Positions 29,754-63,549 of a DNA stretch of 64,000 bases are shown one piece after another. Origin of the DNA: Candidatus Micrarchaeota archaeon. Lineage in GTDB: Archaea > Micrarchaeota > Micrarchaeia > Micrarchaeales > CABMGC01. Numbering within the stretch: position 1 is the first letter of the stretch; each line of letters opens with the position of its first letter. Below the pieces are notes generated by a model. It saw nothing but the letters and a program-made list of their open reading frames with translations, did no database searches and was not told the DNA's origin. The stretch covers positions 4,726-68,725 of the forward strand of contig JAKATZ010000024.1 in assembly GCA_021827925.1 (NCBI GenBank), read 5' to 3'. Made by a program: the position numbers and the translations under genes.

Positions 29754-29785
29754 GATATCTTACCCCTGGCTAAACATATAAGCAT

Positions 29786-39173: not shown

Positions 39174-39232
39174 GTATTCTTCTTGACATCAACAGCTATA
39201 AATAAGGCGCGCATTACACACTGCATGCTCTG

Positions 39233-40687
39233 CTAGGTAAGGGGTGTGCTGTGGGTGCGCATACGGTAGTGGAAGAGACGCATTCTGGTGATCCCGCCTC
39301 CTGCATTCATTTCGGCTACGGGCTCGCCTCCTTCTAGCCATATCCTTCCGGTAGGTTTCAGTATAACCTGTCCTTTGCGTGGCCCTTCTGTTTCGCGCAG
39401 TATCTTGCCTTCGGCATTCATCATTGGCGCTATGACGAATGCTCTGCGTGGATTGAAGGAAACGCCGATCCGCATCTGAGTCCCTGGAAAAAGGCCGTGC
39501 CGGAGTTCAGCATGCTCGAATTCACCAGTAGTGACTACCCTACCCAGGGAACGGCCGTAAAACTGCGTTGTACGCGAGAGCCTGATGTGCCTTAGCTCGG
39601 TAAGCCGGCGTTGCAGCTGGTCGATGTGATCACTGTGCATCGCAGCGATGCTGTCTTCGCCTGAGGAGATGGCATTATTCCATGCCATTCTTGCGGCGCT
39701 CATCTGCCTCTGAAGAAGCGCTTGCTGCCTGTTGAAATCCCTAACCTCAAGAGTGCGCTCCCATTTATCCGCTATATCGCCCCACATCCTTGCATGGTAA
39801 TTAAGCGCACGTTTTTCCGCACCTTCGAATGAGGATCTCGCCGTCTCAATGCCTCCTATTATTCTCCGCATTCTCGCAGCGTATCTTCTTCTCTGGCGCT
39901 CGGTTCGTGCATTCATGAAGCCTTGATAAGCCCTATCCCGCCTATCATATAACCTTCCAAGGTATTGCATTCTGCGTTGCTTATATACAGCAAAATGGTA
40001 TCTGAGGTCCGCCTCGGCTCGCTTGCTTTGCGAGCCCTCGAATAACGTGCTTGTCGTACTCCTGAACGCTTGACTTGTTTCCCTTCTTCTCCCCCACTCT
40101 GCCTTCGCCGCGGAGATCCTCTGGCCTTTGCGCGCACGAATGCTGCTCCTTATCGGATTGTATATCACAGCCCAGCCGGAGGCGTTTTGCCTTCTCATAC
40201 CAGGCCAATTTAGCGGATTGAATCTCGAGAACCTAGTACTTGCGCCTCCTGCAGGGCCCTGTGGAATTCCATGCGGAGAGCTTGGCGCGCCGCTTGGAAG
40301 GGCAGAGGCCGGCGCCGCGCCTGCGGCTGCAGCCGCAAGTGCAACTTCAGAGGTAGGTATTGTGCTAGGACCTGAGGGTGGGCTACCTGCACCTGTGCCT
40401 CCGCTGCCGGACTTTCTGCCGAACGTCCAGCCGCTTTTGGCTCCCACAGTCCTCCTCAGGTTGGGATCGAGTATCGTCCTGAAAGGAAATGCAGACTTGC
40501 CGGAAAGGTTGCCCTTTGAGCTGGGAGTTATGCCTGCCAGCGTCGCTATTCCGAATATCGCGAATATGTTGAAGCCGCGCGTTGCGCCTGCAGCGGCGAG
40601 TATGAGTATCGCTATTATGAACAGAGGTATGAATGCGTTAATCGAGCCTATCGAGAGCAATATGTACAGCAACGTTGCCAGCAGCAT
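39233..40687 (-). CDS. First operon gene: N-terminal TM hairpin, Gly/Pro/Ala/Ser-rich linker, Arg-rich helical domain, C-terminal beta-like domain
   Basis: 484 aa. The N-terminus is LLATLLYILLSIGSINAFIPLFIIAILILAAAGA. The low-complexity stretch is SGSGGTGAGSPPSGPSTIP...AAAAAGAAPASALPSGAPSSP. A long R/Q/A-rich helical region follows. Confidence 0.65.
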   Translation of the reverse strand: MLLATLLYILLSIGSINAFIPLFIIAILILAAAGATRGFNIFAIFGIATLAGITPSSKGNLSGKSAFPFRTILDPNLRRTVGAKSGWTFGRKSGSGGTGAGSPPSGPSTIPTSEVALAAAAAGAAPASALPSGAPSSPHGIPQGPAGGASTRFSRFNPLNWPGMRRQNASGWAVIYNPIRSSIRARKGQRISAAKAEWGRRRETSQAFRSTTSTLFEGSQSKRAEADLRYHFAVYKQRRMQYLGRLYDRRDRAYQGFMNARTERQRRRYAARMRRIIGGIETARSSFEGAEKRALNYHARMWGDIADKWERTLEVRDFNRQQALLQRQMSAARMAWNNAISSGEDSIAAMHSDHIDQLQRRLTELRHIRLSRTTQFYGRSLGRVVTTGEFEHAELRHGLFPGTQMRIGVSFNPRRAFVIAPMMNAEGKILRETEGPRKGQVILKPTGRIWLEGGEPVAEMNAGGGITRMRLFHYRMRTHSTPLT

Positions 40688-46879: not shown

Positions 46880-47677
46880 TCAGCCGCCCCTCCTGAAAAG
46901 CCTTGAGATGAATGAGAAAAATCCCTGCGAGACTGCTTCCTTTGAGCCTATGCCTGTGCGAGTGACGTACTTAATGCTCATGTCATGTATGGCCCTCGAG
47001 AACTTTGAGCGGCGCCTGAGATATGCAGGTATGTGCGATGCCACGCTGATTGGCACGCTCTCGTCTTCTGGAAGCGCTGCGAACAGGTTATCCTTGCATA
47101 CTTCCTCTATTTCCTTGAGGCTAAGTTCGTACCGCTTGTATCTGAGCCTGTTCGCAACGAAGATCTTTGCTATCCGCGATCTCTCGTATATGTGTGCAAG
47201 CCTGACGGCGCTCACGCATGCGGACATTTCAGGAGTCAGGAGTATGAGAGCTTCTGTGTTAGAATCTATGTTGAGATACTTTAATATCCCAGTGGAAACC
47301 GGGCCAGGATATGTGTCTATGATATTGAAGTCGTAATTGGAACTCGTTATCTTCCGGTATACGTAGGAGATGTTCCTGAAGCTGGATTGATCCGGATCCT
47401 TCCCTGTTATCTCTCCGGGAAGCACGTGAAGCCCTGTCGGCCCGTGTATAGTTACTGCGCTCTCAAGGCTTGCTTTGCCGGACATTACGGCGCGTATGCC
47501 AATGTTTGCATCAGCGAGACCCATTTGGAAACCTACGCTGGGATTATAGAAGTCCATATCGGTCAGTAGGGTACGGTAACCCTGCATCCTTAGAGCGACC
47601 GCGAGATTGACAGCGACAGTTGTTTTTCCCACACCTCCTTTCTGCGAGGAGATTATAAGGTTATACGTTTTGTTCAT
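46880..47677 (-). CDS. MinD/ParA-family P-loop ATPase
   Basis: The deviant Walker A is SSQKGGVGKTTVAVNLA. The gene start lies within the last 17 nt of the upstream surface-protein gene. Confidence 0.8.
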   Translation of the reverse strand: MNKTYNLIISSQKGGVGKTTVAVNLAVALRMQGYRTLLTDMDFYNPSVGFQMGLADANIGIRAVMSGKASLESAVTIHGPTGLHVLPGEITGKDPDQSSFRNISYVYRKITSSNYDFNIIDTYPGPVSTGILKYLNIDSNTEALILLTPEMSACVSAVRLAHIYERSRIAKIFVANRLRYKRYELSLKEIEEVCKDNLFAALPEDESVPISVASHIPAYLRRRSKFSRAIHDMSIKYVTRTGIGSKEAVSQGFFSFISRLFRRGG

Positions 47678-49682
47678 CGCCGCCGCTCCTTTTGATCTGC
47701 TCGCGGATTCTTACGAGCTCTTCGGCCCTGCGTTTCTGGTAACGAGGCCTGCCTGACCTTATCCTGAGCAGTATTAATCCTACCAGAAATATTATAAATA
47801 TGGATAGACCCACCTCAAGCTCTAATAAGCCTATGTTTATCTGGTAGGTGTTTGGAGGTATCTGCTGCGGAATGGTGGTAGTTGGTATTTTCTGCAGCAC
47901 TATCAGAGGTATCGTGTAGGTAAGATTTGATCCAGCGGTAGTTATGTAAAGAGTTACCAGGTTTGTGCCTGTCTGCGATCCTGCGGTCACATTGAAGTAC
48001 TCAATCATTAGCCTGTTTGGAGTGGCGTTCACAGTCTGGGTGGGGTTCTGCACCGCGAGAGAAGGAGGAGCGGTCAGCGAAAATGCGACCGCGTGTGAAG
48101 AGGTACCTGTGTAGAGCGCATCAACCTCTATCTGTGCAGTGCTGTCATTGTAGAAAGTAGGAACCTTTATATTGAGAACGCGAATTATGCCCTGCGGATA
48201 GCTGGGGGCCGGCTCCTGTAGCGTAGCCTGTATCTGGCTTAATGCAGTTATGTTTATCGGGTTGCTTATCGAGTAGTAGACGTATGCTGCACCGCCGGCG
48301 GGGAGGTGGGCGAGGAACGATGAGATTGTGTAATCGTAATTTGATGCGTTTACGGTGCTTGGGAGCCCTGTCGCGGTGATGTTGTTCTTGCCATGTGCCA
48401 CAATTTTTGGAAGGCTTGCGACGACAGTCGCGTTGTTTATATCCTTGTTCTGCGGCCCTATGACTTGCAGAGTTACTAGTGCAGTGTTGTTCTGCGAGAT
48501 TATCTGCTTCAGCAGTAGGCTCTTGCCTGGGGAAGGGCTTGCGACAAGGAATTCGAGGAACTCGGTCCTTTGGGTAGCCACGCCGTTCACTATGCTGAGC
48601 GTCATGTTTATTGGTATCACGTAAAGACCGCTGCCAAGGCTGCCGGCACCCGGATTGAACAGTATGCGGACAGACACGCCGCTGCCAGGATTGAGAAGAA
48701 GGGAGTATGCGGAGAGGGAGAGGATCTTCGAGTATGATGAAGGGAAGGACATATTGACGTATTCCTGATTGTTTCCGGTATTGGCTATGCCCAGTTCGGA
48801 TATTGCACTGCTATTCTGCTGTGTCGAGATTAGAAGAGGGAAGGAAGTGAATGATAATGTGGGAAAGCCGGCCACCTGCTGCTTAGGAGGCGGTCCGGGC
48901 TGCTGCTGCGGAGCGGAGGAGACAAAGTAGCTTGCGTTTCTGGAATTTGAGCGCACGGTTGTCCCGTTTGCAGTGTAATTGACATATGCTGTTGCGAAGT
49001 AGCTACCGCCGCTGCCTGTTACATTGCTCAGTGATATTGTTAGGTTCTCTTCCTGTCCGGGAGTCAGCGGAGAGGCGGAAAAGTTGAACGTGTGGTCGGA
49101 GCTCCCGTTTATGATCAGGAAGAGGCTCAGCGAGTTTGATGCGAAATCGCCGATGTTCTTCAATGTCGCGTAGAATGTAACCGTTGCGCCTATGCCAGCG
49201 GATGACGGAGATTCAGAAAAGTCTAACAGGCTTATATTCACAGGCATTAGAAGGTCTATGAGCTTTGAACTGGAGTTGCTGCTGGGCCCCTGGGAAAAGT
49301 GTATCCTGGCTATGTAGTTGCCCGCAGGCAGCGCTAGCGAATTTATCGGAGCTATTGGATACGTTGCCTTCGCAGATACTATGCTATTGACTATCTCATT
49401 CTCTGATACGAACTGGTGACCCGTTGACTGGTAGGTCAGGGTGAATGTGCCTGGAACATTCTGCAGAGTGCAGGTTGATTGCGCAGACAGCGTGTAATTC
49501 AGAAGTATGTTTCCAGTACGTACGTACAGAGTATTGGCATTTAGCGTGACGTTAAACGGGCATGCAACTCCGACGTTAGCAATCACGTTCTCGGTTGTGG
49601 CGGCATTGCCTGCGCCGGGAACTGATGCAAGAATGATTGCAGCCAGAAGGGCGATTTTGATAATAGTCTTATCGCGAGTCAT
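47661..49682 (-). CDS. Large cell-surface (glyco)protein with a CARDB-like domain, signal peptide and C-terminal TM anchor
   Basis: 673 aa. The signal is IALLAAIILASVPGAGNAAT. There are many N-x-S/T sequons. VTFYATLKNIGDFASNS is CARDB-like. The C-terminus is GLSIFIIFLVGLILL plus a basic tail. Confidence 0.7.
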   Translation of the reverse strand: MTRDKTIIKIALLAAIILASVPGAGNAATTENVIANVGVACPFNVTLNANTLYVRTGNILLNYTLSAQSTCTLQNVPGTFTLTYQSTGHQFVSENEIVNSIVSAKATYPIAPINSLALPAGNYIARIHFSQGPSSNSSSKLIDLLMPVNISLLDFSESPSSAGIGATVTFYATLKNIGDFASNSLSLFLIINGSSDHTFNFSASPLTPGQEENLTISLSNVTGSGGSYFATAYVNYTANGTTVRSNSRNASYFVSSAPQQQPGPPPKQQVAGFPTLSFTSFPLLISTQQNSSAISELGIANTGNNQEYVNMSFPSSYSKILSLSAYSLLLNPGSGVSVRILFNPGAGSLGSGLYVIPINMTLSIVNGVATQRTEFLEFLVASPSPGKSLLLKQIISQNNTALVTLQVIGPQNKDINNATVVASLPKIVAHGKNNITATGLPSTVNASNYDYTISSFLAHLPAGGAAYVYYSISNPINITALSQIQATLQEPAPSYPQGIIRVLNIKVPTFYNDSTAQIEVDALYTGTSSHAVAFSLTAPPSLAVQNPTQTVNATPNRLMIEYFNVTAGSQTGTNLVTLYITTAGSNLTYTIPLIVLQKIPTTTIPQQIPPNTYQINIGLLELEVGLSIFIIFLVGLILLRIRSGRPRYQKRRAEELVRIREQIKRSGGDEQNV

Positions 49683-50201: not shown

Positions 50202-51023
50202 TTACCCTGCGGATTCTGCCTGCTTGACATAGCCCTGGCCGCACACGCTCGCCGGAGTGTTGTTGTCCATGGCACAGATCTGTGCGGTGAGCAGGTTCGC
50301 AGAGCCCACTATGGCCTGCGATTGCATTGTTGACGGATCGTGCAACTTTCCCTCTATTATGCTCCAGTTGTCTCCGTTAAGGACAGAGAGGGGATCATAT
50401 GTCGCACCTACAAGCACAGAGCTGTTCCCGAAATCCACGAACGGTATGGAGCCCCCGGGATTATAAGCGAAGAAGGTAGTGTTCTCTTGGTGGGTGGGCC
50501 TTTGTAGAGTCGGATATGAAGGGGGAAAACTCCCGTTTATGGCCTTGTTGCCTTCAATCTCAACGCTGACGAACGAGATGTAAGGGCTGTAGTATGTGGA
50601 ATTTACGAAAGTGAACGTCGGAGAATTCGGAGCGTAGTCGCTGCTGCTGGAAGTCATGTAGGATATGCCGCTGAATGTTCCGAATCGCATCAGGGCTATT
50701 ATCATTGCCCATCTCTCTGCTGCGCAGTAAGGACAGTACTCAGCGCCTATGTAAAGCACCTCTGGCTTCCCATTTAGATAAAGTGGCGTTGTGTTCTTTA
50801 TCTTGCTTATTCCCTTGTACCCCTCAGGCCATATTCCTACAGCATTGCTCACGTTTGCAGGTATCGCCATGCCATTGAGGAATTGCGGAGATACGGGCTT
50901 GCCGTCGTATGAGACCATGCTGGCTCCGCCTGGATTCCCCGCGCCGCTGAGCGAAAATATGAGCACTGCTGAAGCAAGTATGGCCACAAGTATTACTATC
51001 AGGTGAAGGTGCTTTTTATTCAA
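50202..51023 (-). CDS. DUF929-like secreted thioredoxin-fold protein (CxxC)
   Basis: 273 aa with a signal anchor. [22 protein letters not shown] is the DUF929 signature as I recall it. It lies directly upstream of VKOR. Confidence 0.65.
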
Positions 51024-51099
51024 GAAACCACAGAGTATATAATCCAGGGTAGATATTTAAAACTATTGAGCGCCGGATTTCTTAACGGCGCTGTACGAT

Positions 51100-52521
51100 T
51101 CATGCTGTGCCGTAGGAAAGGCGCGCCTTTATTAGCTGCACAAGCTCGGAAAGCATCCTTTTCTTCTCGGATTCTCCCGAGAGTTTTATGCTTGCTGCGC
51201 TCTGGTGTCCACCTCCGGAGATTATATCTGAGGGGTGCCTTTCACGCATCTCGCGTATCACTTCTAGGAGCATTACCCGAGATGCAAGCTGTTTGTCGAC
51301 CCTTATGGAGAGGTAGGAATCAAAATGCAGCACTAGCACGCATGGAGATCCACGGAGTTCGGAAAGCTTGCCAAGCAGCTTAGAAGAGAATCTCCCCGGA
51401 AGAGGATACTTCACTCCGTCGTCACGCATCTTACTGAAATCGAGGAGGTATACGCAGGTATCCGCATATCTGTACTCCTTCACAGATTTGACAGCTTCGC
51501 CGAGAAGCTCCCCAAGCCTGACCCTCGCATAGCTTATGAGCTCTTCCCTCCTTGTTTTGTTTTCAAGCACTGCCGCTATATCCATCGGAGTTAGATTTCC
51601 AGGTGCTGACGATGCCAGTTTCGTGTCGCTTGTGAGGAGGTCAAGCAGCAAGGAGATGCCATTGTCATTACCGTCTCCTACGCGGTACGAGCTGTAATCG
51701 CCTATCAGGGATGCGTTCTCGATCATAATTGTGTCTGACCTGCATAGTGTCTTTGAGAATGCAGAAGCAAGGAATCCTGCGGTGTAGTTCGAATCGCCTT
51801 CGAATAGCCAGGGATTGGAATAATGGGCCATCCTGCTCCCGAAGAATCCTTCCGGCACTGGATGGTGATCCAACCAGAGTATATCGAACCTTTTCTCGGC
51901 GGCGTGTATGCCGGCCTCGCTCTCAGGGGCGGTGCCGAAATCTATCAGCACCAGCAGCGGCTTCTCCAGTGACTCATAGTTGTTTGATATGAGTATGTCT
52001 GAAGCTGCATCATACTCGGAGTATGTGACTCCCTTGTGCATCAGCCATACCGTGTTGGATTTTTTCACAGCGAGCTTGCCGGTTCCCATTAGCTCAGACA
52101 AAGCAAGATACAGGCAGTATGCACCGCTAGAACCGTCAGCATCGTTGTGGAACCTCACTAAGACAGGCGCGCCGTATAGAAGTTTCTTTACAAGCATGCT
52201 TGATGATGCGATGAGGGAATCCCACATCGCGCGAGTGGTTCGGTCTATCTCTTGCGAACCAGTAAGGTACGGCTCCATTATCGGAAGCCTTGCCGCCTCC
52301 TCGGATATCGCAGAAGATATGCCTCCGTTGAACAGCCCCTGCTCTTTTGGGGCAGGATAAGCGATCCCGTTCTCAGTATTTACTGCTTCGCCAAGGGAAA
52401 GCATCTCGATGCCTTTCGCCTCTTCGAGAGTAGCGCCGGATGCGGAGGCGCTCGCTACGTAATAGACAGGATTCATACCCGAATGTTTTATGCATGATAT
52501 TATTCCTTCCATAGGTTGCAC
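51100..52521 (-). CDS. RecJ-like DHH/DHHA1 phosphoesterase (archaeal RecJ/GAN family)
   Basis: The motifs HNDADGSSGA, LIDFG, WLDHHP and GGGHQSAAS occur in the canonical order. Confidence 0.8.
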   Translation of the reverse strand: MQPMEGIISCIKHSGMNPVYYVASASASGATLEEAKGIEMLSLGEAVNTENGIAYPAPKEQGLFNGGISSAISEEAARLPIMEPYLTGSQEIDRTTRAMWDSLIASSSMLVKKLLYGAPVLVRFHNDADGSSGAYCLYLALSELMGTGKLAVKKSNTVWLMHKGVTYSEYDAASDILISNNYESLEKPLLVLIDFGTAPESEAGIHAAEKRFDILWLDHHPVPEGFFGSRMAHYSNPWLFEGDSNYTAGFLASAFSKTLCRSDTIMIENASLIGDYSSYRVGDGNDNGISLLLDLLTSDTKLASSAPGNLTPMDIAAVLENKTRREELISYARVRLGELLGEAVKSVKEYRYADTCVYLLDFSKMRDDGVKYPLPGRFSSKLLGKLSELRGSPCVLVLHFDSYLSIRVDKQLASRVMLLEVIREMRERHPSDIISGGGHQSAASIKLSGESEKKRMLSELVQLIKARLSYGTA

Positions 52522-52524
52522 CGG

Positions 52525-53613
52525 CTAAGGGGTCTGGTTGAGCGTCTGGTACAGGCAGTCGCTGTTGAACGTGGCATTATGTATATACCCACAGTAGGAG
52601 GTATCATTGTAAGCTGATGCGAGACTGTCATAGCACTGGGATTGCATATCGGCAGCGCCTAGGGATGCGCATATGCTTGCATTTCTTGTGCTTATGGCCT
52701 CTGAGAGCAGAACGCCGTACACACATTCCTGGGAGTACTGCGGAGAGTTTCTGCAGTCTGAGAGGAGCATTGTGTAGTTAAGTGAGGTTGTTGCGTTGCT
52801 GCCATAAACAGGCGGTGCAGAGTAGTAGCACAGATTCAGAGCGGAGCTGCCTGAGATAGAAGGGCAATAGCTTGAGTTGTCCTGGCTCTCCGCCAGGTAC
52901 AGATAGCACAGGTCCCTCGGGCTGTATGTGCCGTTTGCTGTGGCATTCAGATAGTAGAGCAGCGGACCTAGCGATGCCGCAAGCTTCTCCCCTGTACCGG
53001 CGGAGGAGCTCAGGTTTTCGTAAAGCGCCTCGGCGATGCTGGCCGATGTGCTGTTCGTAACTGCTGTGCAGTAAAACCCATCCCCCGTGGTGGATGCTTT
53101 CTCCAGGTACACTGCGGAGAGGCACGATGCTGATGGCGAGCTATTTCCATAGCTGCATGCGCTTGCATTAGCGTGCGACAGAGCGAATGATTCAAGGCAG
53201 GCTGAACGGGAAGATGCATTAAGCATGGTGCATGGCTCTGCTGAGGAAGTTGCATTGGCTATCTCAGCGCCGCACTGCTGCGCGTATGCGGTAGATGAGA
53301 GCAGTGTGCACGTGCTCGCATTGGAGTATAGCGTAGCTGCTCCATAGTAGCACGAATCGGAATAGGGCTGAGGAAGCGAGGCGCATCCGGAAAGATTGTT
53401 GGACTGCGCAGAGAGTAAAGCCAGACAGGAATACCTTTGCTGACCCGTTCCGGAGCATCCGCCGGCGGTGCCGTGATCATATGCAAGAACCACTGATGCC
53501 GCCGCGACAAGCGCAATGCACAGTACCGCAAGAGCGTAGAGCTTTGTTTTTTCTCCTGCCGAAAGCAGGGACATGCTCCCTCCCGTACTTTCTTTCGCAT
53601 CAACGTAGGGCAT
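52525..53613 (-). CDS. Secreted or anchored Cys-repeat protein
   Basis: 362 aa with an N-terminal signal anchor. About nine ~30-aa repeats each hold a Cys pair (e.g. SDSCYYGAATLYSNASTC, RSACLESFALSHANASAC, MQSQCYDSLASAYNDTSYC) and embedded sequons. Confidence 0.6.
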   Translation of the reverse strand: MPYVDAKESTGGSMSLLSAGEKTKLYALAVLCIALVAAASVVLAYDHGTAGGCSGTGQQRYSCLALLSAQSNNLSGCASLPQPYSDSCYYGAATLYSNASTCTLLSSTAYAQQCGAEIANATSSAEPCTMLNASSRSACLESFALSHANASACSYGNSSPSASCLSAVYLEKASTTGDGFYCTAVTNSTSASIAEALYENLSSSAGTGEKLAASLGPLLYYLNATANGTYSPRDLCYLYLAESQDNSSYCPSISGSSALNLCYYSAPPVYGSNATTSLNYTMLLSDCRNSPQYSQECVYGVLLSEAISTRNASICASLGAADMQSQCYDSLASAYNDTSYCGYIHNATFNSDCLYQTLNQTP

Positions 53614-53694
53614 TGTCGCTGCACCTTTCAGGTATTTTGAACCGTTTACGCATAATTATATCAATATTGCTTCATATTTATAACCTTGTAAGCG

Positions 53695-54417
53695 GTGTTT
53701 CCATTGGACAGAAGAATCCTGGCTTTCGGCATCCTGCTGATGTTGGTAGGCGTGATTGTAGGCTCTGCTGCAATGAACAGCAGCCTTGGAGATCTGGGAG
53801 TCCATGGAACAGTTCTTGCGCCAGGAACGGCTGCGAGTATGAGCATGCAACTCAACCGTTCGAGCGAGGCCGTGCTCTCTTACAATTCTACAGCTCCCAT
53901 TGATTTTTATTTCATGGACAGCAGCGCGTTTGCCATGCTCCCCCAGAATGGTAGCGCGCATGGAATACGCGGCATCGCAGCAAGCATGAATGGCAACGGG
54001 ATTTATTTCTCTTCGGTCAACAGGAGCTATGGTGGCTTTGTATACACAGGGGAGAATGCAACGGCAGAGTTCATAGGGCCGCAGAATAACGGAAGTGGAA
54101 TATCGGGGCCTGTTACACTGAAGAACGGCACGTATTATGCAGTTTACGCGGACAACTATCCCTATGCCGCGAATGTGGTAACGGGATTTAATTACATAAA
54201 CCCGCAGTCGATACCGGCATCGGTCTCGTTTGCAGGGCTGATGTTCATGGCAGGCGTAATCGCAGTCATACTGTCATTCCTTAGGAAAGGCAAGGGAAAC
54301 GCAGAGCCGAGGGAGGAGGAGATAAGGAGGGCGTATGATGAGATAGACGCGGATAACGCAAGAACGGGTAGCAAGAGCAGGAAAGGGAAGGCTGCTCGGA
54401 AAAGGAGCAGGGGCTGA
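53695..54417 (+). CDS. Bitopic membrane protein (TM, ~170-aa ectodomain, TM, basic tail); first gene of the KaiC-like operon
   Basis: 240 aa with a GTG start. The TM segments are ILAFGILLMLVGVIVGSAA and FAGLMFMAGVIAVILSFL. The C-terminal tail is rich in K/R. Confidence 0.55.
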   Translation: MFPLDRRILAFGILLMLVGVIVGSAAMNSSLGDLGVHGTVLAPGTAASMSMQLNRSSEAVLSYNSTAPIDFYFMDSSAFAMLPQNGSAHGIRGIAASMNGNGIYFSSVNRSYGGFVYTGENATAEFIGPQNNGSGISGPVTLKNGTYYAVYADNYPYAANVVTGFNYINPQSIPASVSFAGLMFMAGVIAVILSFLRKGKGNAEPREEEIRRAYDEIDADNARTGSKSRKGKAARKRSRG

Positions 54418-54423
54418 GGCGCT

Positions 54424-55380
54424 TTGATGGAAACGGGGAACGTTGCCGAAGGCTGGAGGACAGAAATAGCAGGCGTGATAGTTGCAGTTGCCGATCTTAT
54501 AGCAAGGATCATACTCTCTGAAGTCGAGGCCGCGAGGGAGAAGCAGAACATTCTCGCAAAGATGTACATGAAGCTAGAGCAGGATAAGCTTGAGAAGGCG
54601 ATGGCGCCGTACATAGGCGCAGTGGTTTTCCTCTCTTTTACAGGCAAGGAAGTGAACGGAAAGAGCATCGAGGGCATAGTAAGGTCGGCAGGAATAGAAC
54701 CGGAAGACAGGTTTCTGAAATTCGCGGCATCGCTTAATTTTGAGAACAGCATCATAGCATATGCACCTGCAGTATACTTCTTGAAAGTGGTGAGGAGGGA
54801 GATCACCGCAGAAAACGTGATGGCAGTAGTAGGCGCAATGGGAAAGAGCACCGACGAGAAGATAGCAAGACACGTGCTGGATATCTACAGTATGCAGAGC
54901 GCAGCAAGCAAGAAGAGCGCAGAGATAGGATTCGAGGAGAGGATGATAAGCTCGGTTAGGGAAGCTGCGACCATGCTCTCTAAGATAATGCTGATAGAGC
55001 TTGACAGGACCTTCGAGAAGAAGGACATCGCAGACCATATAGGGAAGGGATTCATACCTTACCTCGCAGCGGTAGGTACGCTAGTGTATGCCGGAGAGGA
55101 CATAGATGCGGTTGGTGCGGAGAAATTCTATAGATACATAGCAGCGATGGTTGAGGCAGTTGGGGTCGCCGCTGACAAGTCGATGCTTGAGTACGTATCG
55201 TCATTCAACTACGGCAGCTCCGGGTTCGTGTATGTCTCTGCCGCATATTACCTGAAATCAATTGGCATGAATGTGGATATACGACAGGTCATGGCCGTTG
55301 TAGCGGCATCCGGAGAGAATCCGGATGAGGCTACCGCGGGCTTTGTATTGACAATATACAAGGATTACAACAAGGTATAA
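54424..55380 (+). CDS. Protein built from four ribosomal-stalk-P1(N-terminal domain)-like half-repeats (two double units)
   Basis: 318 aa; the ATG is at 54427. YIGAVVFLSFTGKEVNGKSIEGIVRSAGIEPEDRFLKFAASL aligns position for position with my recollection of archaeal P1 (Y..AALLL...GKEI....I..VL.AAGVEVDE......AL). A second unit begins at YLAAVGTLVYAGEDID. There is no acidic stalk tail. Confidence 0.55.
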   Translation: MMETGNVAEGWRTEIAGVIVAVADLIARIILSEVEAAREKQNILAKMYMKLEQDKLEKAMAPYIGAVVFLSFTGKEVNGKSIEGIVRSAGIEPEDRFLKFAASLNFENSIIAYAPAVYFLKVVRREITAENVMAVVGAMGKSTDEKIARHVLDIYSMQSAASKKSAEIGFEERMISSVREAATMLSKIMLIELDRTFEKKDIADHIGKGFIPYLAAVGTLVYAGEDIDAVGAEKFYRYIAAMVEAVGVAADKSMLEYVSSFNYGSSGFVYVSAAYYLKSIGMNVDIRQVMAVVAASGENPDEATAGFVLTIYKDYNKV

Positions 55381-55404: not shown

Positions 55405-56118
55405 ATGGCTTCAGCAAAGACACAGGTCAACAAGATAAGCACAGGGGTTGTGGGCCTTGATGAGATGCTCTACGGAGGCATACCCGAGGGCAACCAGATG
55501 CTCATGGCCGGAGATGCGGGAACCGGAAAGACGCTGATGTCTTTCGAGATGCTGTACAGGAACGCGAACATAAATATACCGAGTACGTTCATAACACTCG
55601 AGGAGGGAAGGAAGTCGCTGCTCGAGAATGTTAAGGGAGCGTTCTCGTACTTTGATGACATCGACGACCTTGTGGATAGGAATATGATAACTGTAACTGA
55701 GCAGAAGGTAGTGGAGGCATTCAAATCGAGGGAGAGCCTGCAGTCGTTCATAGTGGGCATAAACAGGATAATTCAGGCAAACAGCTCAAGAATAGTTGTC
55801 TTTGACTCTATCTCGCCCATAAGGCCGCTGATAGACAGTGACAGGACGTTCACGCGGGCGATAAGCCAGATGATAGAGAACTTCAGGAACCTGGGCGTGA
55901 CTAGCATAGTCAACGTGGAGACTGCTTCGCCAACGCTCACAGAGGTTGCAGGGCTTTATGGCACGTACATGTTCGATGGGATAGTCAAGCTCAGCACTTA
56001 CAAGGAGCAGAACAGTTTTCAGTACCTGATTACCGTTGTCAAGATGAGGAGGTCGAATCACAAGAACAGCTCGATGCCTTTCGAGATAACGCCGAAGGGC
56101 TTCAACATATTCAGATAG
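55405..56118 (+). CDS. KaiC/RecA-superfamily single-domain ATPase (ArlH/KaiC-like), copy 1
   Basis: 237 aa. TGVVGLDEMLYGGIPEG is present, Walker A is GDAGTGKT and Walker B is IVVFDSI. KMRRSNH is the typical KaiC-like C-terminal motif. Confidence 0.85.
   Translation: MASAKTQVNKISTGVVGLDEMLYGGIPEGNQMLMAGDAGTGKTLMSFEMLYRNANINIPSTFITLEEGRKSLLENVKGAFSYFDDIDDLVDRNMITVTEQKVVEAFKSRESLQSFIVGINRIIQANSSRIVVFDSISPIRPLIDSDRTFTRAISQMIENFRNLGVTSIVNVETASPTLTEVAGLYGTYMFDGIVKLSTYKEQNSFQYLITVVKMRRSNHKNSSMPFEITPKGFNIFR
55450..55676 (+). repeat. Near-identical nucleotide block shared with 56986..57212 (KaiC-like copies 1 and 3)
   Basis: Compared base by base: about 227 nt with roughly 15 mismatches, including a perfect run of about 70 nt. 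The first 50 nt (55450..55499) are identical between copies 1 and 3, and a 33-nt core of that stretch (gctctacggaggcatacccgagggcaaccagat) also occurs in copy 2 at about 56236. Confidence 0.8.
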
Positions 56119-56158: not shown

Positions 56159-56932
56159 TTGTGTGATATTAAGATTCCTGCCAGTGATTTGATGCGAGAA
56201 AGGATAGAAACGGGGATAGGGGGTATAGACCGTATGCTCTACGGAGGCATACCCGAGGGCAACCAGATAGTCATAGCAGGAGGTCCTGGTTCGGGAAAAA
56301 CTCTCCTCTGTTTCGAGTATCTTTACAACAACGCGATCAACGGGCAGATAGGGCTCTTCATCTCACTTGAGGAAGACACCGGGCTCATAATAGAGAATGC
56401 GAAGGAGGCATTCTCGGATTTCAAAGACATAGACAAAATGATAGCAGACAAGAAGATAGTCGTGCATGGGGCTAATGACACGAGATCGTACATACAGCGC
56501 GATGCCCAGGGATCATCTTACACATTCGGAAAGTTCGTCACCGAAATAGAGTCTTTGATAGAATCCACTAACGCCACGCGCGTTGTGATAGACTCGGTAT
56601 CGATAATAAAGCTTCTTATGAAGGATCCTTTCGAATACAGGAACACTTCGATGAGCCTTGTCGCGGTGTTGAGGAGGTCCAAGGTAACCGCGCTGCTTAC
56701 GATGGAGATAGAATCCTCGGAGAAGAACAAGCTGATATTCCAGCCGGAATTCTTTATATACGATGGCATAATAATAATGTATTCAAGCGCGGGGGAGGGA
56801 GGTAGCAGGATACCTACGATGGAGATAATTAAAATGAGAGGCTCGAACCACAGTTTCGCTACGGTGCCTTATGAAATAACCGCGGGTGGGATCAACCTCA
56901 TGCTGCTCGCCGAAAGGCGCGCTGACGGATAG
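56159..56932 (+). CDS. KaiC/RecA-superfamily single-domain ATPase, copy 2 (divergent)
   Basis: 257 aa with a TTG start, verified. Walker A is GGPGSGKT and Walker B is RVVIDSV. KMRGSNH is present. Confidence 0.8.
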   Translation: MCDIKIPASDLMRERIETGIGGIDRMLYGGIPEGNQIVIAGGPGSGKTLLCFEYLYNNAINGQIGLFISLEEDTGLIIENAKEAFSDFKDIDKMIADKKIVVHGANDTRSYIQRDAQGSSYTFGKFVTEIESLIESTNATRVVIDSVSIIKLLMKDPFEYRNTSMSLVAVLRRSKVTALLTMEIESSEKNKLIFQPEFFIYDGIIIMYSSAGEGGSRIPTMEIIKMRGSNHSFATVPYEITAGGINLMLLAERRADG

Positions 56933-56940
56933 ATGATGCG

Positions 56941-57654
56941 ATGGCAGCCGAGAACAAGATAGTAAACAGGATGAACACAGGGATAGTGGGCCTTGATGAG
57001 ATGCTCTACGGAGGCATACCCGAGGGCAACCAGATACTGATTGCGGGAGATGCAGGAACCGGAAAGACGCTGATGTCTTTCGAGATGCTGTACAGGAACG
57101 CGAACATAAATATACCGAGTACGTTTGTAACTCTTGAGGAGGGAAGGAAGTCGCTGCTCGAGAATGTTAAGGGAGCGTTCTCATATTTTGACAATATCGA
57201 CGATCTTGTGGAGAACAATACGATATCGATATCGGAACAGACAGCTATGAGCGCATTCAGATCGAAGGAAAGCTGGCAGACGTTCATAGTAGGCATAAAC
57301 AGGGTGCTGAAGGAAAACAACTCGAAGATACTGGTAGTGGATTCGCTTGCTCCGCTCAGGCCTCTTGCGGAGGATGACAGGACGTTCACGCGGGCGATAA
57401 ACCAGATGATAGAGAACTTCAGGAACCTGGGGATAACGAGTATCATAAATATGGAGACGTCATCAATGAACCTCACTGAGGTTTCAGGCCTTTACGGAAC
57501 GTTCATGTTCGATGGGATAATAAGACTTGGCACCTTCTACATGGAAGGCAGCTTCCAGTACCTGGTTACCGTTGTCAAGATGAGGAGGTCGAATCACAAG
57601 AACAGCTCGATGCCTTTCGAGATAACGCCGAAGGGGCTTAACGTATTTAGATAG
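56941..57654 (+). CDS. KaiC/RecA-superfamily single-domain ATPase, copy 3 (recent duplicate of copy 1)
   Basis: 237 aa, colinear with copy 1 at a constant offset of 1536 nt. It has the same Walker motifs. Confidence 0.85.
   Translation: MAAENKIVNRMNTGIVGLDEMLYGGIPEGNQILIAGDAGTGKTLMSFEMLYRNANINIPSTFVTLEEGRKSLLENVKGAFSYFDNIDDLVENNTISISEQTAMSAFRSKESWQTFIVGINRVLKENNSKILVVDSLAPLRPLAEDDRTFTRAINQMIENFRNLGITSIINMETSSMNLTEVSGLYGTFMFDGIIRLGTFYMEGSFQYLVTVVKMRRSNHKNSSMPFEITPKGLNVFR
56986..57212 (+). repeat. Partner of the repeat at 55450..55676
   Basis: See the partner entry. Further identical patches lie at about 55839..55895 vs 57375..57431 and 56032..56099 vs 57568..57635. Confidence 0.8.
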
Positions 57655-57665
57655 AGGAGTAGCGC

Positions 57666-58622
57666 ATGGAAAGGGTTCTGGTAACCGGCTCGACCGGATT
57701 TATAGGAAGGGAGCTTGTGCGGCGTCTGCTTGATAGCAACCGTGAAGTCCATACACTGGAAAGATACGTGACCGGGAGGTACAGCTTCGATGGCGGTGCA
57801 CGCGTGGTGAATCATCATGCGAGCCTTACAGATTATCCCGCAGTAAGGAACATAATAGGAGACGTCAGGCCGGATTACGTAATACACCTTGGAGCTGTGA
57901 GTGCGGTATCATTCTCTTATGACCATTATATAGAGATAAGCGATACGAACTATATAGGCACGATAAACCTCGCCGAGGCATGCTACAGGGAGGTGCCAGG
58001 ATTCTCGCAGTTCATTTTTGCAAACACGAGCGAGAGCTATGGAATGACTTTGAAGAGCAAGTCTGGGAAGTTAACCGAGGAATCGGAGTTCAACCCAAAC
58101 AGCCCGTACGCAGTTGCTAAGGTGGCATGCGAGATGTACCTCAGATACATGGGTCAGGCGTACAGGTTCCCTTACACTGCAATGAGGCCTTTCAATACCT
58201 ACGGTAGGAAGGAAAACGCCCATTTCTTCATAGAGAGGACGATAACCCAGATGCTTGCAGGAGAAACAGTACATCTAGGCGATCCTGAAACGGTTAGGGA
58301 CTGGCTTTACGTAGATGACCACGTTGACGGCTATATGAAGGCACTTGGGAACAAAAAGGCCGTAGGTGAATCAATAAATCTCTGCACTGGCAGGGGATAT
58401 ACCACAAAGGAAACTGCGGATATCATAGCGAAGCTTGCAGGGTTCAGTGGTAAGATCGTATGGAACTCCACACCAAGGAGGCCTCTTGACGCGAGGATCC
58501 TCATAGGAGACAACAGCAAGGCCAAGAAGCTGCTGGGGTGGGAGCCCAGATATCAGCTTGAGGAAGGGCTGGGCAAGATAATAGAGTATCTGAAGTCTAA
58601 GAAAGGAGACGCGCGGGCTTGA
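57666..58622 (+). CDS. NAD-dependent sugar epimerase/dehydratase (extended SDR)
   Basis: VLVTGSTGFIGRELVRRL is present, and the catalytic motif is YAVAKVACE (YxxxK). Confidence 0.85.
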   Translation: MERVLVTGSTGFIGRELVRRLLDSNREVHTLERYVTGRYSFDGGARVVNHHASLTDYPAVRNIIGDVRPDYVIHLGAVSAVSFSYDHYIEISDTNYIGTINLAEACYREVPGFSQFIFANTSESYGMTLKSKSGKLTEESEFNPNSPYAVAKVACEMYLRYMGQAYRFPYTAMRPFNTYGRKENAHFFIERTITQMLAGETVHLGDPETVRDWLYVDDHVDGYMKALGNKKAVGESINLCTGRGYTTKETADIIAKLAGFSGKIVWNSTPRRPLDARILIGDNSKAKKLLGWEPRYQLEEGLGKIIEYLKSKKGDARA

Positions 58623-59370: not shown

Positions 59371-60057
59371 TCAGAGATTCCCCAGCCGCACCTTTATCTC
59401 CTCGGAGCTTAACTTGGTGGTAAGAAGGGGGATGTGCTCTATCTGAGAAATCTTTACGGCCAGCTTGTCTACAGCGTCGAGATTCTGTATGACGACAAGG
59501 CGCGGTTTTATCGGAGCTACCCTTACTACGACCATGGGAGACCTCCCGGTACTTACCTGGTCAAAGATGAATGCCCTTTCGTTTGTAGTCCCGAATAGCC
59601 GAGGGTACTCCGCAGGAGATATCTCAAGTATGACCCGCAGGCTGTCAAGAAGGGTGTACCCGAAAAGCTTCATCGTATCCAGGTAGCTGGGATTCGCCAC
59701 TATCTTTGCGTCGATTATGCGCGCGAAGTCTATGCCGCTTATTGGAGCTGAAAAATCGCGTATGGAATAGAACGGCTCTTCGTTTGCGCTGTTGAATTTC
59801 TGTAGGTTGCGCACGACCTCCCCGCCGCGCTGCGCGTCTATCGAGAATAATGCATTTATGAAGCGCTTTATAACGCCAGCGCCAGGGCTGGCCCTCCTGT
59901 TGCCTTCGTAATCACTTATTGTAGATGTTGATATCTTCAGCAGCTTGGCAAGCTCTATCTGGGATATGCCGAACAGCTCGCGCCACTTCTTCATCGTACT
60001 GCCAGGTGTCTCTGAGAGGGTTATCTCTCCTGCTATGCGTTCCTGCAGGCTGTCCAT
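59371..60057 (-). CDS. XRE-type HTH transcriptional regulator with a conserved archaeal C-terminal domain
   Basis: The HTH is WRELFGISQIELAKLLKISTSTISDYEGNRR. The internal ATG at 60057 (verified) removes the overlap with 60129..60839. Confidence 0.7.
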   Translation of the reverse strand: MDSLQERIAGEITLSETPGSTMKKWRELFGISQIELAKLLKISTSTISDYEGNRRASPGAGVIKRFINALFSIDAQRGGEVVRNLQKFNSANEEPFYSIRDFSAPISGIDFARIIDAKIVANPSYLDTMKLFGYTLLDSLRVILEISPAEYPRLFGTTNERAFIFDQVSTGRSPMVVVRVAPIKPRLVVIQNLDAVDKLAVKISQIEHIPLLTTKLSSEEIKVRLGNL

Positions 60058-60128
60058 ATTTATCGTTAATATAGATAGTAAGCGAACCTTAATAAGGCTT
60101 TTGACGAAGTCTCTTGAAAGCAGAGGTA

Positions 60129-60839
60129 TTACTCTCCCCACATCTCGGCCTTGATGCTCTTCTCCTCTACTCCGAGAGAGATCAGTGCATCCTTCAGGGC
60201 TCTTACGAATGCCGGAGGGCCGCATATGTAGCTTATGCGTTCCTTGAAATCCGGCACATCCCTCTTTATCATGTCCGCATTCACGTGCCCTGTTTCCCCT
60301 TTCCAGATATCGTTCTCCCTCGGCCTTGTTACAGTGACGGTAGTCCTAAGGCCGTCTTCCAGCTCCATCCCCTTCAGTTCGTCAGCATAGATTATTTCGT
60401 CGGAATACTTGACGCTGTACATGAGGCTGCAGTCGAGCTTCTTACCAACGCTTTTTGCGTATCGCAGCATTGAAAGGAATGGCGCTATCCCCGTTCCTCC
60501 TGCGAGAAAGAGGAATTTGGTTCCTGAGTTTATCTCGAATTTGAACTGGCCGTAAGGAGCAGAAAGAAGATACACGTCGCCGAGCTTTGCAGCCTCCAGT
60601 TTCGAAGTCAGCCTGCCGTGTATGAGCGCTATCAGGAACTCGAATCTGTCGGCAGGGGGTGAATTTGCCATCGAGAAAGCCCTGGCGATGCTCTCTTTCT
60701 CGTCCTTATACTGAAGCATAGCAAACATTCCAGGCACAAAATCCACGCTGGTGCCATCCTTTGCCCTGAATACAAAAGAGGTTACTAGTGGTGTCAGTCG
60801 GGTTATTTTCTCCAGAACATAGGATTTGTTAAGTATCAT
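60129..60839 (-). CDS. FNR-like FAD/NAD(P)-binding oxidoreductase
   Basis: FVPGMFAMLQY, RAFSMANSP (the R.YS-type FAD motif) and LFLAGGTGIAPFLSML are present. Confidence 0.75.
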   Translation of the reverse strand: MILNKSYVLEKITRLTPLVTSFVFRAKDGTSVDFVPGMFAMLQYKDEKESIARAFSMANSPPADRFEFLIALIHGRLTSKLEAAKLGDVYLLSAPYGQFKFEINSGTKFLFLAGGTGIAPFLSMLRYAKSVGKKLDCSLMYSVKYSDEIIYADELKGMELEDGLRTTVTVTRPRENDIWKGETGHVNADMIKRDVPDFKERISYICGPPAFVRALKDALISLGVEEKSIKAEMWGE

Positions 60840-61438: not shown

Positions 61439-62971
61439 ATGATAAAAGAAATTGTTGACTCTGCACTCGGAATGTTTTACGGAATGGCATTACAGGATGG
61501 GAAAAGTGCCGGGATGGGATTTTCTGTCGGAGCTCCGGCAGAGATCGGACAGGGGCAGCGCACGGCGGCGGGACCCGTAGAAAGGCGCTTCGTGCAGACA
61601 GGGGATACTTACGCGTATTCCATCGGCAGCGGCGCTGTCACCTGGCAGGAAATGAAGCTGATGGCGGTTGCAAAGACGAGGGTGAGAGAAAGGATCGCCG
61701 ACGCTGATTCGCATTGTCATGGCTTCTTTACGAAAGCGTCTGATCTGGCTAATGAGGCGCTGAATGAACTCGGCTGTCACGAGGAGGCGCGCTGGCTCTC
61801 TTATTTAATAGCGCACGACATGGCAGGATACGGCCCCATAAGCATATTGCTTGAGGACAGGGATAATATAGCAGGTGTGGAAGTTAAATCCGCTTTTTCG
61901 CCGATATTGGTGCTTTCGAAAAACCATGGGAGGTGCTTGACAAATCTCCGTTTTGCAGGAGAAGAGGCCTTCAGGAGTACTATGAACAGATTCGTACTCG
62001 AGAATGGAAGAGGTCTAGGGCAGGAAGGCGTGGAAATCGATGTGAGGATAAGAGATGCCATACCGCATGCGCTGGCAGGACCTTATGCGGGAAGAGGGCC
62101 CGCTGCCTCGATAATGACAGGCAGGAACATGGGAGCAGAGAATATCCTGCTTGACGGAACGGCAAGCCCGGATGTCATTGCATACCTATGGATTGCACTT
62201 GAGTCAAGAATGAACGTTATTGTTTCAGGCGGGCGTGCTAGCGGAAAGTCGGCTTTGATTTCAGCACTGGCGGGCTTCTTACCAAGGCATAGCAGACTAG
62301 CAGTGATCGGAAATCGGACCGATGAACCATTACCCATGGGACCTCTTTTCTGCGTTGCGTCTGTTGATGGGTCTGGATACGGGAATATCGATACGGGAGA
62401 ACAGGTGGCTGAATTGCTTGGGACAGGACCGGATAGGATGATCTTCGGTGAGGTCAGGGGAAGGGAGGCTGCAGCGCTTTTCTCAGGAGCAAATGAGGGA
62501 GTGCCATTTATAACCACTGTGCGCAGTGATGAAGGAGGACTTTCTCTGCCGGTAATGCTCAACGCAAAGCCCATATGCATAGGACCGGTGGCGCTGAGCA
62601 TGCTCGATCTTTCGGTGCACATGATGCGGACAGATCCAGAAACTGTACACATCGCTTCCATATCCGAGTACCTCTGGCTGAGCAGGGCGGAGACCGAGTG
62701 CGGATCGGATATCGGCAATGGAGATTCTGTTGAAGAGTTGCCGCTGCTTGAATACGGCACGTTCGGAAAAAACCTGGAAAGATCGAAGGTCTTGAAGGCG
62801 TATTCAAGAATGATGGGGGTAGGGATTGCATACGCAGTTGCAGAGCAGAAAGCCAGGGCTGATGCGATAAGGAAAGCGTTGGATGAGAAAGATAGCAGGG
62901 ATGGCCTGAAAAGGCTTGTCTCACATCATCTCGGCCTCATGAGCAGGAGGTACGATCAGCCAGTCGAATGA
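61439..62971 (+). CDS. Divergent type II/IV secretion-family ATPase (FlaI/ArlI-VirB11-PilB class)
   Basis: 510 aa. Walker A is SGGRASGKSA, and the Walker B region GPDRMIFGEVRGREAAALF is typical of the family. The Asp-box (IGNRTDEPL) and His-box (ITTVRSD) positions look degenerate. Confidence 0.7.
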   Translation: MIKEIVDSALGMFYGMALQDGKSAGMGFSVGAPAEIGQGQRTAAGPVERRFVQTGDTYAYSIGSGAVTWQEMKLMAVAKTRVRERIADADSHCHGFFTKASDLANEALNELGCHEEARWLSYLIAHDMAGYGPISILLEDRDNIAGVEVKSAFSPILVLSKNHGRCLTNLRFAGEEAFRSTMNRFVLENGRGLGQEGVEIDVRIRDAIPHALAGPYAGRGPAASIMTGRNMGAENILLDGTASPDVIAYLWIALESRMNVIVSGGRASGKSALISALAGFLPRHSRLAVIGNRTDEPLPMGPLFCVASVDGSGYGNIDTGEQVAELLGTGPDRMIFGEVRGREAAALFSGANEGVPFITTVRSDEGGLSLPVMLNAKPICIGPVALSMLDLSVHMMRTDPETVHIASISEYLWLSRAETECGSDIGNGDSVEELPLLEYGTFGKNLERSKVLKAYSRMMGVGIAYAVAEQKARADAIRKALDEKDSRDGLKRLVSHHLGLMSRRYDQPVE

Positions 62972-63057: not shown

Positions 63058-63549
63058 TTGGAAGTATCTGACCCAATCGCGAGCAATGCTCAGTTAAGCC
63101 AGCAGGGGAGTGCGCCAGACGGTGAGAAGAAACTTGAGGCGATGGTAAGATCGCTGGCAGTACTGATGGCGAAAATCTCGCTGAGGGAGACAAGTAGGGC
63201 ATTCGAGGATGGAGGGGTCAAGGATTATCAAGACAGGATAGTACCGTACCTCGCTGCTGTGGACATGCTAGCCTTCACAGGCAGGGACATAGATTCTGAG
63301 GGCATAATAAAGCTGGTAAGATCCATAGGAATAATACCTGAAAGCAATATGGTGGATAAGGTCATAGCGCTTAGATTCAAGAACAGCCTCGTTTATGCCT
63401 CTGCGGTGTACTTCCTTGTTTCGGCAGGCAAGGAGCCCACGGTCGACATGATACTGCTCGTGATAAGGGCACTTGATATGCACCCTGATTCAAGCCTTGC
63501 AGGGTACGCAATAACCCTCTACAGGCTTTATAAGGATGCGAGCTTGTAG
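63058..63549 (+). CDS. P1(N-terminal domain)-like double-repeat protein, paralog of 54424..55380
   Basis: 163 aa with a TTG start. YLAAVDMLAFTGRDIDSEGIIKLVRSIGIIPESNMVDKVIALRF and YASAVYFLVSAGKEPTVDMILLVIRALDMHPD repeat the unit seen at 54424..55380. A TATA-like aatttataaatgg lies around 63001..63013. Confidence 0.55.
   Translation: MEVSDPIASNAQLSQQGSAPDGEKKLEAMVRSLAVLMAKISLRETSRAFEDGGVKDYQDRIVPYLAAVDMLAFTGRDIDSEGIIKLVRSIGIIPESNMVDKVIALRFKNSLVYASAVYFLVSAGKEPTVDMILLVIRALDMHPDSSLAGYAITLYRLYKDASL

Follow-up and report, generated by a model that had tools for sequence, protein, structure and literature searches.

P1L, a family of archaeal proteins built from repeated P1 stalk N-domain-like modules, and its recurrent gene linkage to a pair of KaiC-like ATPases

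Analysis of a 64,000-nucleotide stretch of DNA from a Candidatus Micrarchaeota archaeon (assembly GCA_021827925.1, contig JAKATZ010000024.1, positions 4,726 to 68,725; this whole stretch is called the window below) revealed a gene, referred to here as the target, whose 317-residue product contains four modules resembling the N-terminal dimerisation domain of the ribosomal stalk protein P1. As judged from sequence profiles and from a predicted structure, these modules, which are of two types designated a and b, are truly homologous to the N-terminal dimerisation domain of P1/P2. The target belongs to a family of proteins that we have named P1L, and P1L is very likely non-ribosomal and derived from the dimerisation domain of P1. 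The target gene lies immediately upstream of three genes coding for KaiC-like ATPases of two types, KaiC-A and KaiC-B, and comparison with related loci indicated that the linkage of P1L genes to KaiC genes is recurrent, that it is specific to the KaiC-A and KaiC-B pair and that it concerns only a subset of the family genes. New here is a known domain in an undescribed architecture, the family that carries it and its probable role.

Repeat structure of the target protein and its relation to the P1 N-domain

The open reading frame (ORF) at positions 54424 to 55380 is present on the forward strand of the window and begins with a TTG codon at 54424, the next codon being an ATG (54427). Since the ATG stands directly after the TTG, and since a JGI metagenome protein (P0001) is identical to the target over 317 residues, 54427 is the likely start. 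Comparison of the first and the second half of the protein by BLASTP (E=2e-20, 29% identity over 140 columns) revealed an internal duplication that is far beyond chance. All four half-repeat strings quoted in a preliminary description of this DNA were found in the translation, and its two tandem units with half-repeats were borne out by the BLASTP comparison while the unit size of about 95 residues was not; the unit measures about 150 residues because a long helix ahead of the two modules belongs to the repeat. Each unit consists of a leading helix followed by module a and module b, each module comprising about 48 residues and three helices. A unit hidden Markov model (HMM) matched residues 62-157 and 212-315 of the target. 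Module a of the second unit carries a 7-residue insertion relative to that of the first, and the ELDRTFE motif of the second leading helix is conserved in three family alignments (A1, A6 and A10).

A Pfam scan of the target yielded no match at E<=1, PF00428 being missed, while the NCBIfam model of archaeal P1 (TIGR03685) matched residues 63-99 with E=1.1e-7 and 32.1 bits. All profile searches of the PDB were run against 177,635 PDB sequences. A profile made from the target and two homologues found the Pyrococcus horikoshii P1 N-domain (3a1y_A) as its best match (E=1e-5). For profiles of the single modules, 212 a+b units from 152 family proteins were split into an a and a b sub-alignment. The two resulting profiles matched each other with an HHalign probability of 98.4% (E=7e-15), and each ranked 3a1y_A first in the PDB, with E=3.6e-9 for the a-profile and E=5.5e-8 for the b-profile. 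The runners-up of both were P2 and P1 of yeast and human; the similarity of the modules to eukaryotic P1/P2 is weaker (E=6e-5 to 0.02). Family genes in the window and in ten other loci were matched at about 1e-5 when Pyrococcus P1 served as query in pairwise tblastn comparisons. The resemblance to the P1 N-domain that had been noticed from the sequence alone therefore stands for the whole protein and for both modules, although of the profile checks that had been proposed the one with the Pfam ribosomal model came back empty and the match came from TIGR03685 and from the PDB.

Alignment of the modules with P1 in a gapless register showed that both modules conserve the signature residues Y3 (93%), G14 (73-84%), K/R15, G30, P33 and D/E34. 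The profile matches stop at about P1 residues 36-44 and thus cover helices 1-3 only.

The AlphaFold (AF2) model of the target is all-alpha, with a predicted local distance difference test score (pLDDT) of 80 and a predicted template modelling score (pTM) of 0.81. A second family member in the window, a single-unit paralogue at 63058-63549, was likewise modelled as all-helical (pLDDT 88, pTM 0.77). The pTM values of 0.77-0.81 indicate a compact body in the predicted structures. Foldseek comparison of the full-length target model with the PDB gave non-significant helical-bundle and transporter matches only; since the P1 similarity is at sub-domain scale, the compact paralogue was modelled instead. 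With this model 3a1y_A came out on top (probability 0.99), superposing with 0.5 Å root-mean-square deviation over 42 columns and a template modelling score of 0.71 normalised to P1, and wheat, human and yeast P1/P2 were also in the list. The Foldseek E-values of about 1 are not significant alone, which is because the domain is tiny, and their role is to corroborate the sequence statistics.

The P1/P2 N-domain is made of four helices. Its dimer interface is formed by helices 1 and 2, joined in P2 by helix 4, and does not include helix 3; opening of helix 4 in archaeal P1 exposes a pocket for a spine helix of P0 (PMC2926600). At the positions equivalent to the P1/P2 dimer interface both P1L modules are 83-99% hydrophobic versus a background of 50-56%. 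The position corresponding to P1-L8 is Gly in 102 of 201 a modules and Tyr in 140 of 191 b modules, which we read as a complementary small/large pair that would support packing of a on b. From these features we infer that P1L proteins are likely fused pseudo-dimers clamped on their own helix. Within a unit, a would pack on b in the manner of the two P1 chains of the stalk homodimer, so as to form a single-chain pseudo-dimer, and the leading helix would lie on this pseudo-dimer, replacing P1 helix 4 and/or the P0 spine helix. The leading helix was also considered as a homologue of the P0 spine helix, which was rejected for want of sequence support, the leading-helix profile having no sequence similarity to P0.

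Comparison with archaeal P1 (aP1/L12e; TIGR03685, COG2058; P. horikoshii P0-(P1)2 structure 3A1Y) showed that the ~48-residue module, homologous to helices 1-3, keeps Y3, G14-K15 and G30-x-x-P33-D/E34 together with the hydrophobic dimer core. Unlike archaeal P1, P1L has four (or two) modules per chain and a long extra helix before each pair; it is devoid of a helix 4 counterpart, of the hinge, of the acidic tail and of a ribosomal operon, and several paralogues occur per genome. The eukaryotic P1/P2 heterodimer (2LBF, 4BEH; PMC2926600, PMC3326305) provides a case in which two diverged copies of the domain pair with each other, and a and b are likewise two diverged copies, which differ at an interface position (Gly in a, Tyr in b); unlike in the heterodimer, however, they are fused in one tail-less chain and their pairing is predicted.

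The target is not a functional stalk protein, as indicated by its score, its size, its missing tail and its gene context. Its TIGR03685 score of 32.1 bits stands against a curated cut-off of 100, and its 317 residues and four modules stand against the single N-domain and the total of about 100-115 residues of P1. The hinge is absent. When 152 family members were searched with a regular expression for an acidic run and a terminal L/F, none of them showed a tail, and neither does the target, whose C-terminus reads ...TIYKDYNKV; the absence of an acidic/hydrophobic stalk tail had been correctly pointed out before. The typical archaeal P1 gene lies beside P0 in an L11-L1-P0-P1 ribosomal cluster. 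The neighbours of the target code for a membrane protein, KaiC-like ATPases and an epimerase, and no ribosomal genes are among them. Neither the window nor 366 kb of related loci yielded a canonical P0 or P1 gene, and we assume that these organisms keep a normal stalk. Several family members carry the automatic JGI/IMG label 'ribosomal protein L12E/L44/L45/RPP1/RPP2'. The preliminary description had allowed for the family being already annotated with a known function; such a label does exist, and it is a misleading homology label with which no known function is connected.

The P1L family and its linkage to KaiC-like ATPase genes

Analyses of the three ATPase genes downstream of the target confirmed the presence of KaiC-like proteins (PF06745, E=2e-39 to 2e-50), as had been stated from their translations. 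Walker A (GxxxxGKT), the catalytic EE and Walker B (hhhhDS) are intact in all three. Their best PDB matches are the CI domain of cyanobacterial KaiC and three single-domain proteins of archaea, PH0284, PH0186 and SSO2452. Scores for circadian KaiC (TIGR02655 / NF006799) were 115-136 bits versus 408, the window proteins having a single domain versus two tandem domains (~500 residues) in circadian KaiC, and scores for ArlH/FlaH (NF052589) were 31-51 bits versus a cut-off of 215. No ArlH/FlaH structure was among their PDB matches at E<=1e-10, and no archaellum genes were found in the cluster. The designation of these ATPases as ArlH-type was therefore abandoned, as they are nearer to KaiC CI, PH0284 and PH0186. 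The two KaiC-B copies share 74% amino-acid and about 83% nucleotide identity, and on this sequence comparison they are taken as recent duplicates; the window has the order B-A-B, whereas relatives carry just one A-B pair.

All six genes between 53695 and 58622 share one strand, with gaps of 9, 24, 73, 8 and 11 nucleotides between them, which suggests that this run is an operon. The gene for a two-transmembrane protein at its upstream end is possibly co-transcribed with the P1L gene.

Since the preliminary description had called for a survey of such genes for a constant linkage to KaiC-like genes, the neighbourhoods of related genes were compared. At locus L010 KaiC-A (62% identical to that of the window) and KaiC-B (58%) come directly after a single-unit P1L gene. 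At locus L025 a convergent KaiC-B/KaiC-A pair, 50-55% identical to the window proteins, adjoins a strongly divergent double-unit P1L gene (19% identity with the target), and at locus L026 a KaiC-A/KaiC-B pair lies about 1 kb from its P1L genes. The KaiC-A copies of L025 and L026 are 50-53% identical to KaiC-A of the window. The linked P1L genes of the window and of these three loci are only about 19-40% identical, versus 50-62% for the KaiC pairs. Gene order, strand and flanks differ among the four linked loci and, as the flanking genes differ in every one of them, only the trio of P1L, KaiC-A and KaiC-B persists. A P1L neighbour was thus found for all four of the orthologous KaiC-A plus KaiC-B pairs observed, which come from divergent lineages (the window, L010, L025 and L026), versus none of about ten lone KaiC-A-like genes.

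Several observations weigh against a constant association of P1L with KaiC. Six other family neighbourhoods (L001/L004, L003, L008/L027, L009, L011 and L012) are without KaiC genes. The closest lone KaiC-A genes (60-68% identity; L013, L014 and L016) are without P1L within 6 kb, and L016 seems to keep the flanking block of the window without P1L, KaiC-B and the epimerase. The linkage is therefore recurrent, in four lineages, and it is not constant.

The block in question is a stretch of shared synteny between positions 6748-11762 of L016 and positions 50202-54417 plus 59371-60225 of the window, with the same gene order. It codes for a DUF929-like protein, a DHH-motif protein (473 residues), a Cys-rich secreted protein of 362 residues, a two-transmembrane protein and an XRE-type helix-turn-helix protein, the counterparts in L016 being judged by gene order, size and sequence character, not by pairwise alignment. 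This synteny suggests an insertion, deletion or relocation of the P1L-KaiC cluster between relatives.

Family members were sought with HMMER exhaustively in 1.84 billion cluster representatives. The search returned 153 proteins at E<=1e-3, 36 of them at E<=1e-30. The family amounts to some 150 clusters at 50% identity, with about 57 double-unit proteins (~300-350 residues) and about 93 single-unit ones (~150-170 residues). Family members are mildly acidic, with a median isoelectric point of 5.3, and no convincing transmembrane segment was found in them. A match of PF25325 (EF-hand) on one member was rejected as sub-threshold (25.6 versus 27 bits).

Single- and double-unit forms co-occur in one genome, as in the window, where the single-unit paralogue lies 5.7 kb from the KaiC cluster. 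Tandem arrays of paralogues are frequent in the family. At locus L004 (5227-11345) one single-unit gene and then five double-unit genes stand in tandem, an arrangement seen also at L001 and L002; the paralogues of the L004 array are 32-68% identical to one another and about 6 kb of a presumably small genome is given to the family. A sugar epimerase gene follows the L004 array, and the epimerase after the arrays of L001/L004 is only 27% identical to that of the window. Locus L009 carries three double-unit P1L genes and locus L011 two, 3 kb apart. At L026 (6001-6947) the double-unit gene is present as two ORFs of 180 and 136 residues with a 7-nucleotide overlap and one a+b unit each, a state that points either to a frameshift or pseudogene or to a natural fission, by which single- and double-unit forms would interconvert.

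A distinct single-unit subfamily was observed at L008 (6201-8542) and L027 (5234-7602), being about 21% identical to the single-unit paralogue of the window. Its conserved context is a different one, a PNP_UDP_1 phosphorylase gene on one side and an IF-2B-family gene on the other. KaiC genes are absent nearby, and this context suggests that different P1L subfamilies have different partners.

The 12 GTDB loci retrieved with KaiC-A of the window were all from Candidatus Micrarchaeota metagenome-assembled genomes (MAGs), and a family gene was found in one of the 12 (L015, the same contig as L010). The named relatives that could be placed were almost all Candidatus Micrarchaeota, one family member being labelled Marsarchaeota by NCBI, as is the MAG of L004. 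Pattern scans with alignments A1 or A10 detected no relatives in GTDB genomes, JGI metagenomes and viral contigs; alignments A4 and A6 were too divergent to be scanned with in this way, and word-indexed homologue searches gave few proteins and few names.

Possible roles of P1L

The explanation that we adopt is that the P1 N-domain was repeatedly duplicated and would have given rise to a soluble, all-helical, non-ribosomal protein. As it is without the flexible acidic tail, P1L would be unable to recruit translation GTPases. It would most likely work as a protein-protein scaffold or adaptor together with a hetero-oligomeric KaiC-A/KaiC-B ATPase, perhaps regulating the ring in the way that KaiA and KaiB regulate KaiC, or serving as a client or output partner, and the extra paralogues would diversify the partners. 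Gene neighbourhood, which is the basis for this part, makes it plausible that at least one P1L per genome works with the KaiC-A/B hetero-oligomer as adaptor, regulator or client. For the explanation as a whole, a soluble helical P1-derived pseudo-dimer that serves as scaffold or adaptor for the KaiC-A/B ATPase, we estimate a probability of about 0.45, and it is put forward tentatively.

The KaiA/KaiB-KaiC and ArlH-ArlI systems, in which small partners couple or regulate rings of the KaiC family, resemble the window in that a small non-enzymatic protein is encoded beside KaiC-family ATPase genes, the ATPase motifs being intact here. Unlike KaiA, KaiB and the archaellum proteins as partners of such ATPases, to which it has no sequence or fold relationship, P1L is a putative partner on account of its gene neighbourhood. 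The ATPases of the window are single-domain proteins in a conserved A/B pair that score below the ArlH thresholds.

Alternatively, P1L could act on the stalk itself. P1L pseudo-dimers would then dock on the P0 spine helices instead of P1 dimers, so that fewer factor-recruiting tails are present and translation is throttled, for example in dormancy and possibly under the control of KaiC. The dimer-core residues and signature motifs of P1 are kept and archaeal P1 is the closest relative, which is what such a decoy or regulator would show. The yeast proteins Mrt4 (P0), Rlp7 (L7) and Rlp24 (L24), in which a ribosomal domain was duplicated and diverted as in P1L, have been suggested as placeholder paralogues, an idea that according to the same source was not borne out for Rlp7 (PMC3814368). 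These proteins keep the architecture of their parents while P1L is re-engineered into a multi-module protein. Helix 4, said to open the P0-binding pocket (PMC2926600), is however without a counterpart in the modules, and each unit's own long helix plausibly occupies the P0-binding surface. Ribosomal gene neighbours are absent, and arrays of five to six paralogues are hard to explain by a single P0 target, so that we regard this role as unlikely. A self-assembling structural protein is about as improbable. The leading helix would here insert in the a-b groove of the next subunit to give head-to-tail polymers or lattices, the paralogue arrays would be variant building blocks and the KaiC pair would be an ATPase for assembly or disassembly. 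What speaks for it is that structural proteins typically come in tandem arrays of uniformly sized paralogues, of which up to six are seen here, and that a helix-plus-clamp design could allow domain swapping. Both the co-occurrence of single- and double-unit forms and the split double-unit gene of L026 would agree with it; the confident compact AF2 monomers (pTM 0.77-0.81), on the other hand, suggest that the helix binds in cis, and the expansion of paralogues fits a diversification of adaptors equally.

An ordinary divergent stalk protein, or a chance or compositional similarity to P1, might be argued from the automatic JGI stalk label in the one case, and in the other from the missing PF00428 match and from Foldseek E-values that are not significant alone. 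Both are already refuted. An ordinary stalk protein would not be three times as long as P1 or have four modules, would not lack the hinge and the acidic tail, would not stay at 32 versus 100 bits and would not come in several paralogues per genome, the missing tail and the sub-threshold scores being decisive here; chance is countered by the profile statistics, since two independent module profiles rank P1 first in the PDB (E~1e-8 to 1e-9), and by the conserved signature residues. A more far-reaching variant of the docking on P0 is that P1L proteins are tail-less P1-dimer mimics that silence the stalk of their own or of a host ribosome, with KaiC-A/B gating their loading or release. Micrarchaeota live attached to Thermoplasmatales hosts. 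We consider this variant quite improbable, more so than a decoy or a structural protein; if true, a stalk-silencing mimic would represent a previously unknown translation control or a manipulation of the host by means of a repurposed ribosomal part.

To our knowledge, the P1/P2 N-domain has no other known place than the ribosomal stalk, where it serves for dimerisation and anchoring, and the partners and outputs of archaeal single-domain KaiC-like ATPases are mostly unknown. A literature search on P1-like paralogues, COG2058, L12E with KaiC, and Micrarchaeota with KaiC returned nothing relevant, the main survey of KaiC neighbourhoods lying outside this search. With no Pfam model and no paper found, the earlier impression that the architecture had not been described holds. 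P1L very likely represents the reuse of a core ribosomal domain outside the ribosome, in a paralogue-rich family of genome-reduced DPANN archaea, and the keeping of six or more copies in such small genomes suggests a real function. The adopted explanation predicts that the stalk dimer has a counterpart in the form of a single-chain pseudo-dimer and makes P1L a candidate as the partner of one conserved pair among the archaeal single-domain KaiC-like ATPases, and the analysis corrects a recurring mis-annotation as 'ribosomal protein L12E/RPP1/RPP2'.

Feature coordinates and other genes of the window

The coordinates of the target gene with its modules, of its putative operon and of the second P1L gene are given in the table; the first and the last gene of the run are tentative members.

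Table. Positions of the P1L genes, their modules and the neighbouring genes in the window (numbered from its first nucleotide).
Feature	Position	Strand	Details
P1-like (P1L) double-unit gene, four P1-N-domain-like modules	54427..55380	+	317 aa (amino acids); alternative TTG start 54424
Unit 1 leading helices	54442..54576	+	~residues 6-50; AF2 helices H6-38, H42-50; aligns with unit-2 leading helix (self-BLAST)
Module a1, like P1 N-domain helices 1-3	54601..54750	+	~residues 59-108; TIGR03685 match residues 63-99
Module b1, P1 N-domain-like	54751..54900	+	~residues 109-158; b-profile match to 3a1y_A
Unit 2 leading helix, ELDRTFE motif	54931..55044	+	~residues 169-206; AF2 helix H169-197
Module a2	55048..55221	+	~residues 208-265; seed alignment
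Module b2	55222..55365	+	~residues 266-313; tblastn with Pyrococcus P1 matches 55231-55332, E=0.001
Two-transmembrane membrane protein	53695..54417	+	240 aa; ends 9 nt upstream of P1L gene; run membership tentative
KaiC-like ATPase type B, copy 1	55405..56118	+	237 aa, single domain; PF06745 E=2.3e-39; 58% identical to L010 KaiCb
KaiC-like ATPase type A	56192..56932	+	246 aa; ORF extends upstream to TTG 56159; PF06745 E=1.6e-50
KaiC-like ATPase type B, copy 2	56941..57654	+	237 aa; PF06745 E=2e-41
NAD (nicotinamide adenine dinucleotide)-dependent sugar epimerase/dehydratase	57666..58622	+	PF16363, PF01370; last gene of run, membership tentative
Single-unit P1L paralogue, second family member in window	63058..63549	+	163 aa as listed; tblastn E=2e-19; unit HMM E=3.5e-34

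Directly upstream of the single-unit paralogue, positions 61439-62971 of the forward strand code for a divergent T2SSE-type ATPase of 510 residues (PF00437, E=1e-6), which lies 3.8 kb from the KaiC cluster and is the only secretion-type ATPase there. No archaellum or membrane-platform family was found among the genes around it. It was considered as a conserved partner of P1L and rejected, since the 521-residue protein at the corresponding position of L004 is an unrelated Asn/Ser-rich membrane protein and other single-unit P1L genes have other upstream neighbours.

On the reverse strand, a long same-strand run at 28248-40687 starts with a HerA/DUF87-type ATPase (PF01935, E=1e-14) that is followed by several proteins of 390-520 residues; two proteins of this run that were scanned (35025-36599 and 39233-40687) had no Pfam match. 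The run could code for a secretion, conjugation or pilus-like system, or it could be an integrated element. Three large ORFs (672-787 residues) at 9603-11813, 24236-26602 and 47661-49682 had no Pfam match at E<=1e-5, which is typical of the 'dark matter' of DPANN genomes. The window also carries genes for Topo VI-B (22096-23757) and for a Hel308-type helicase (1961-4090), by which it is identified as archaeal.

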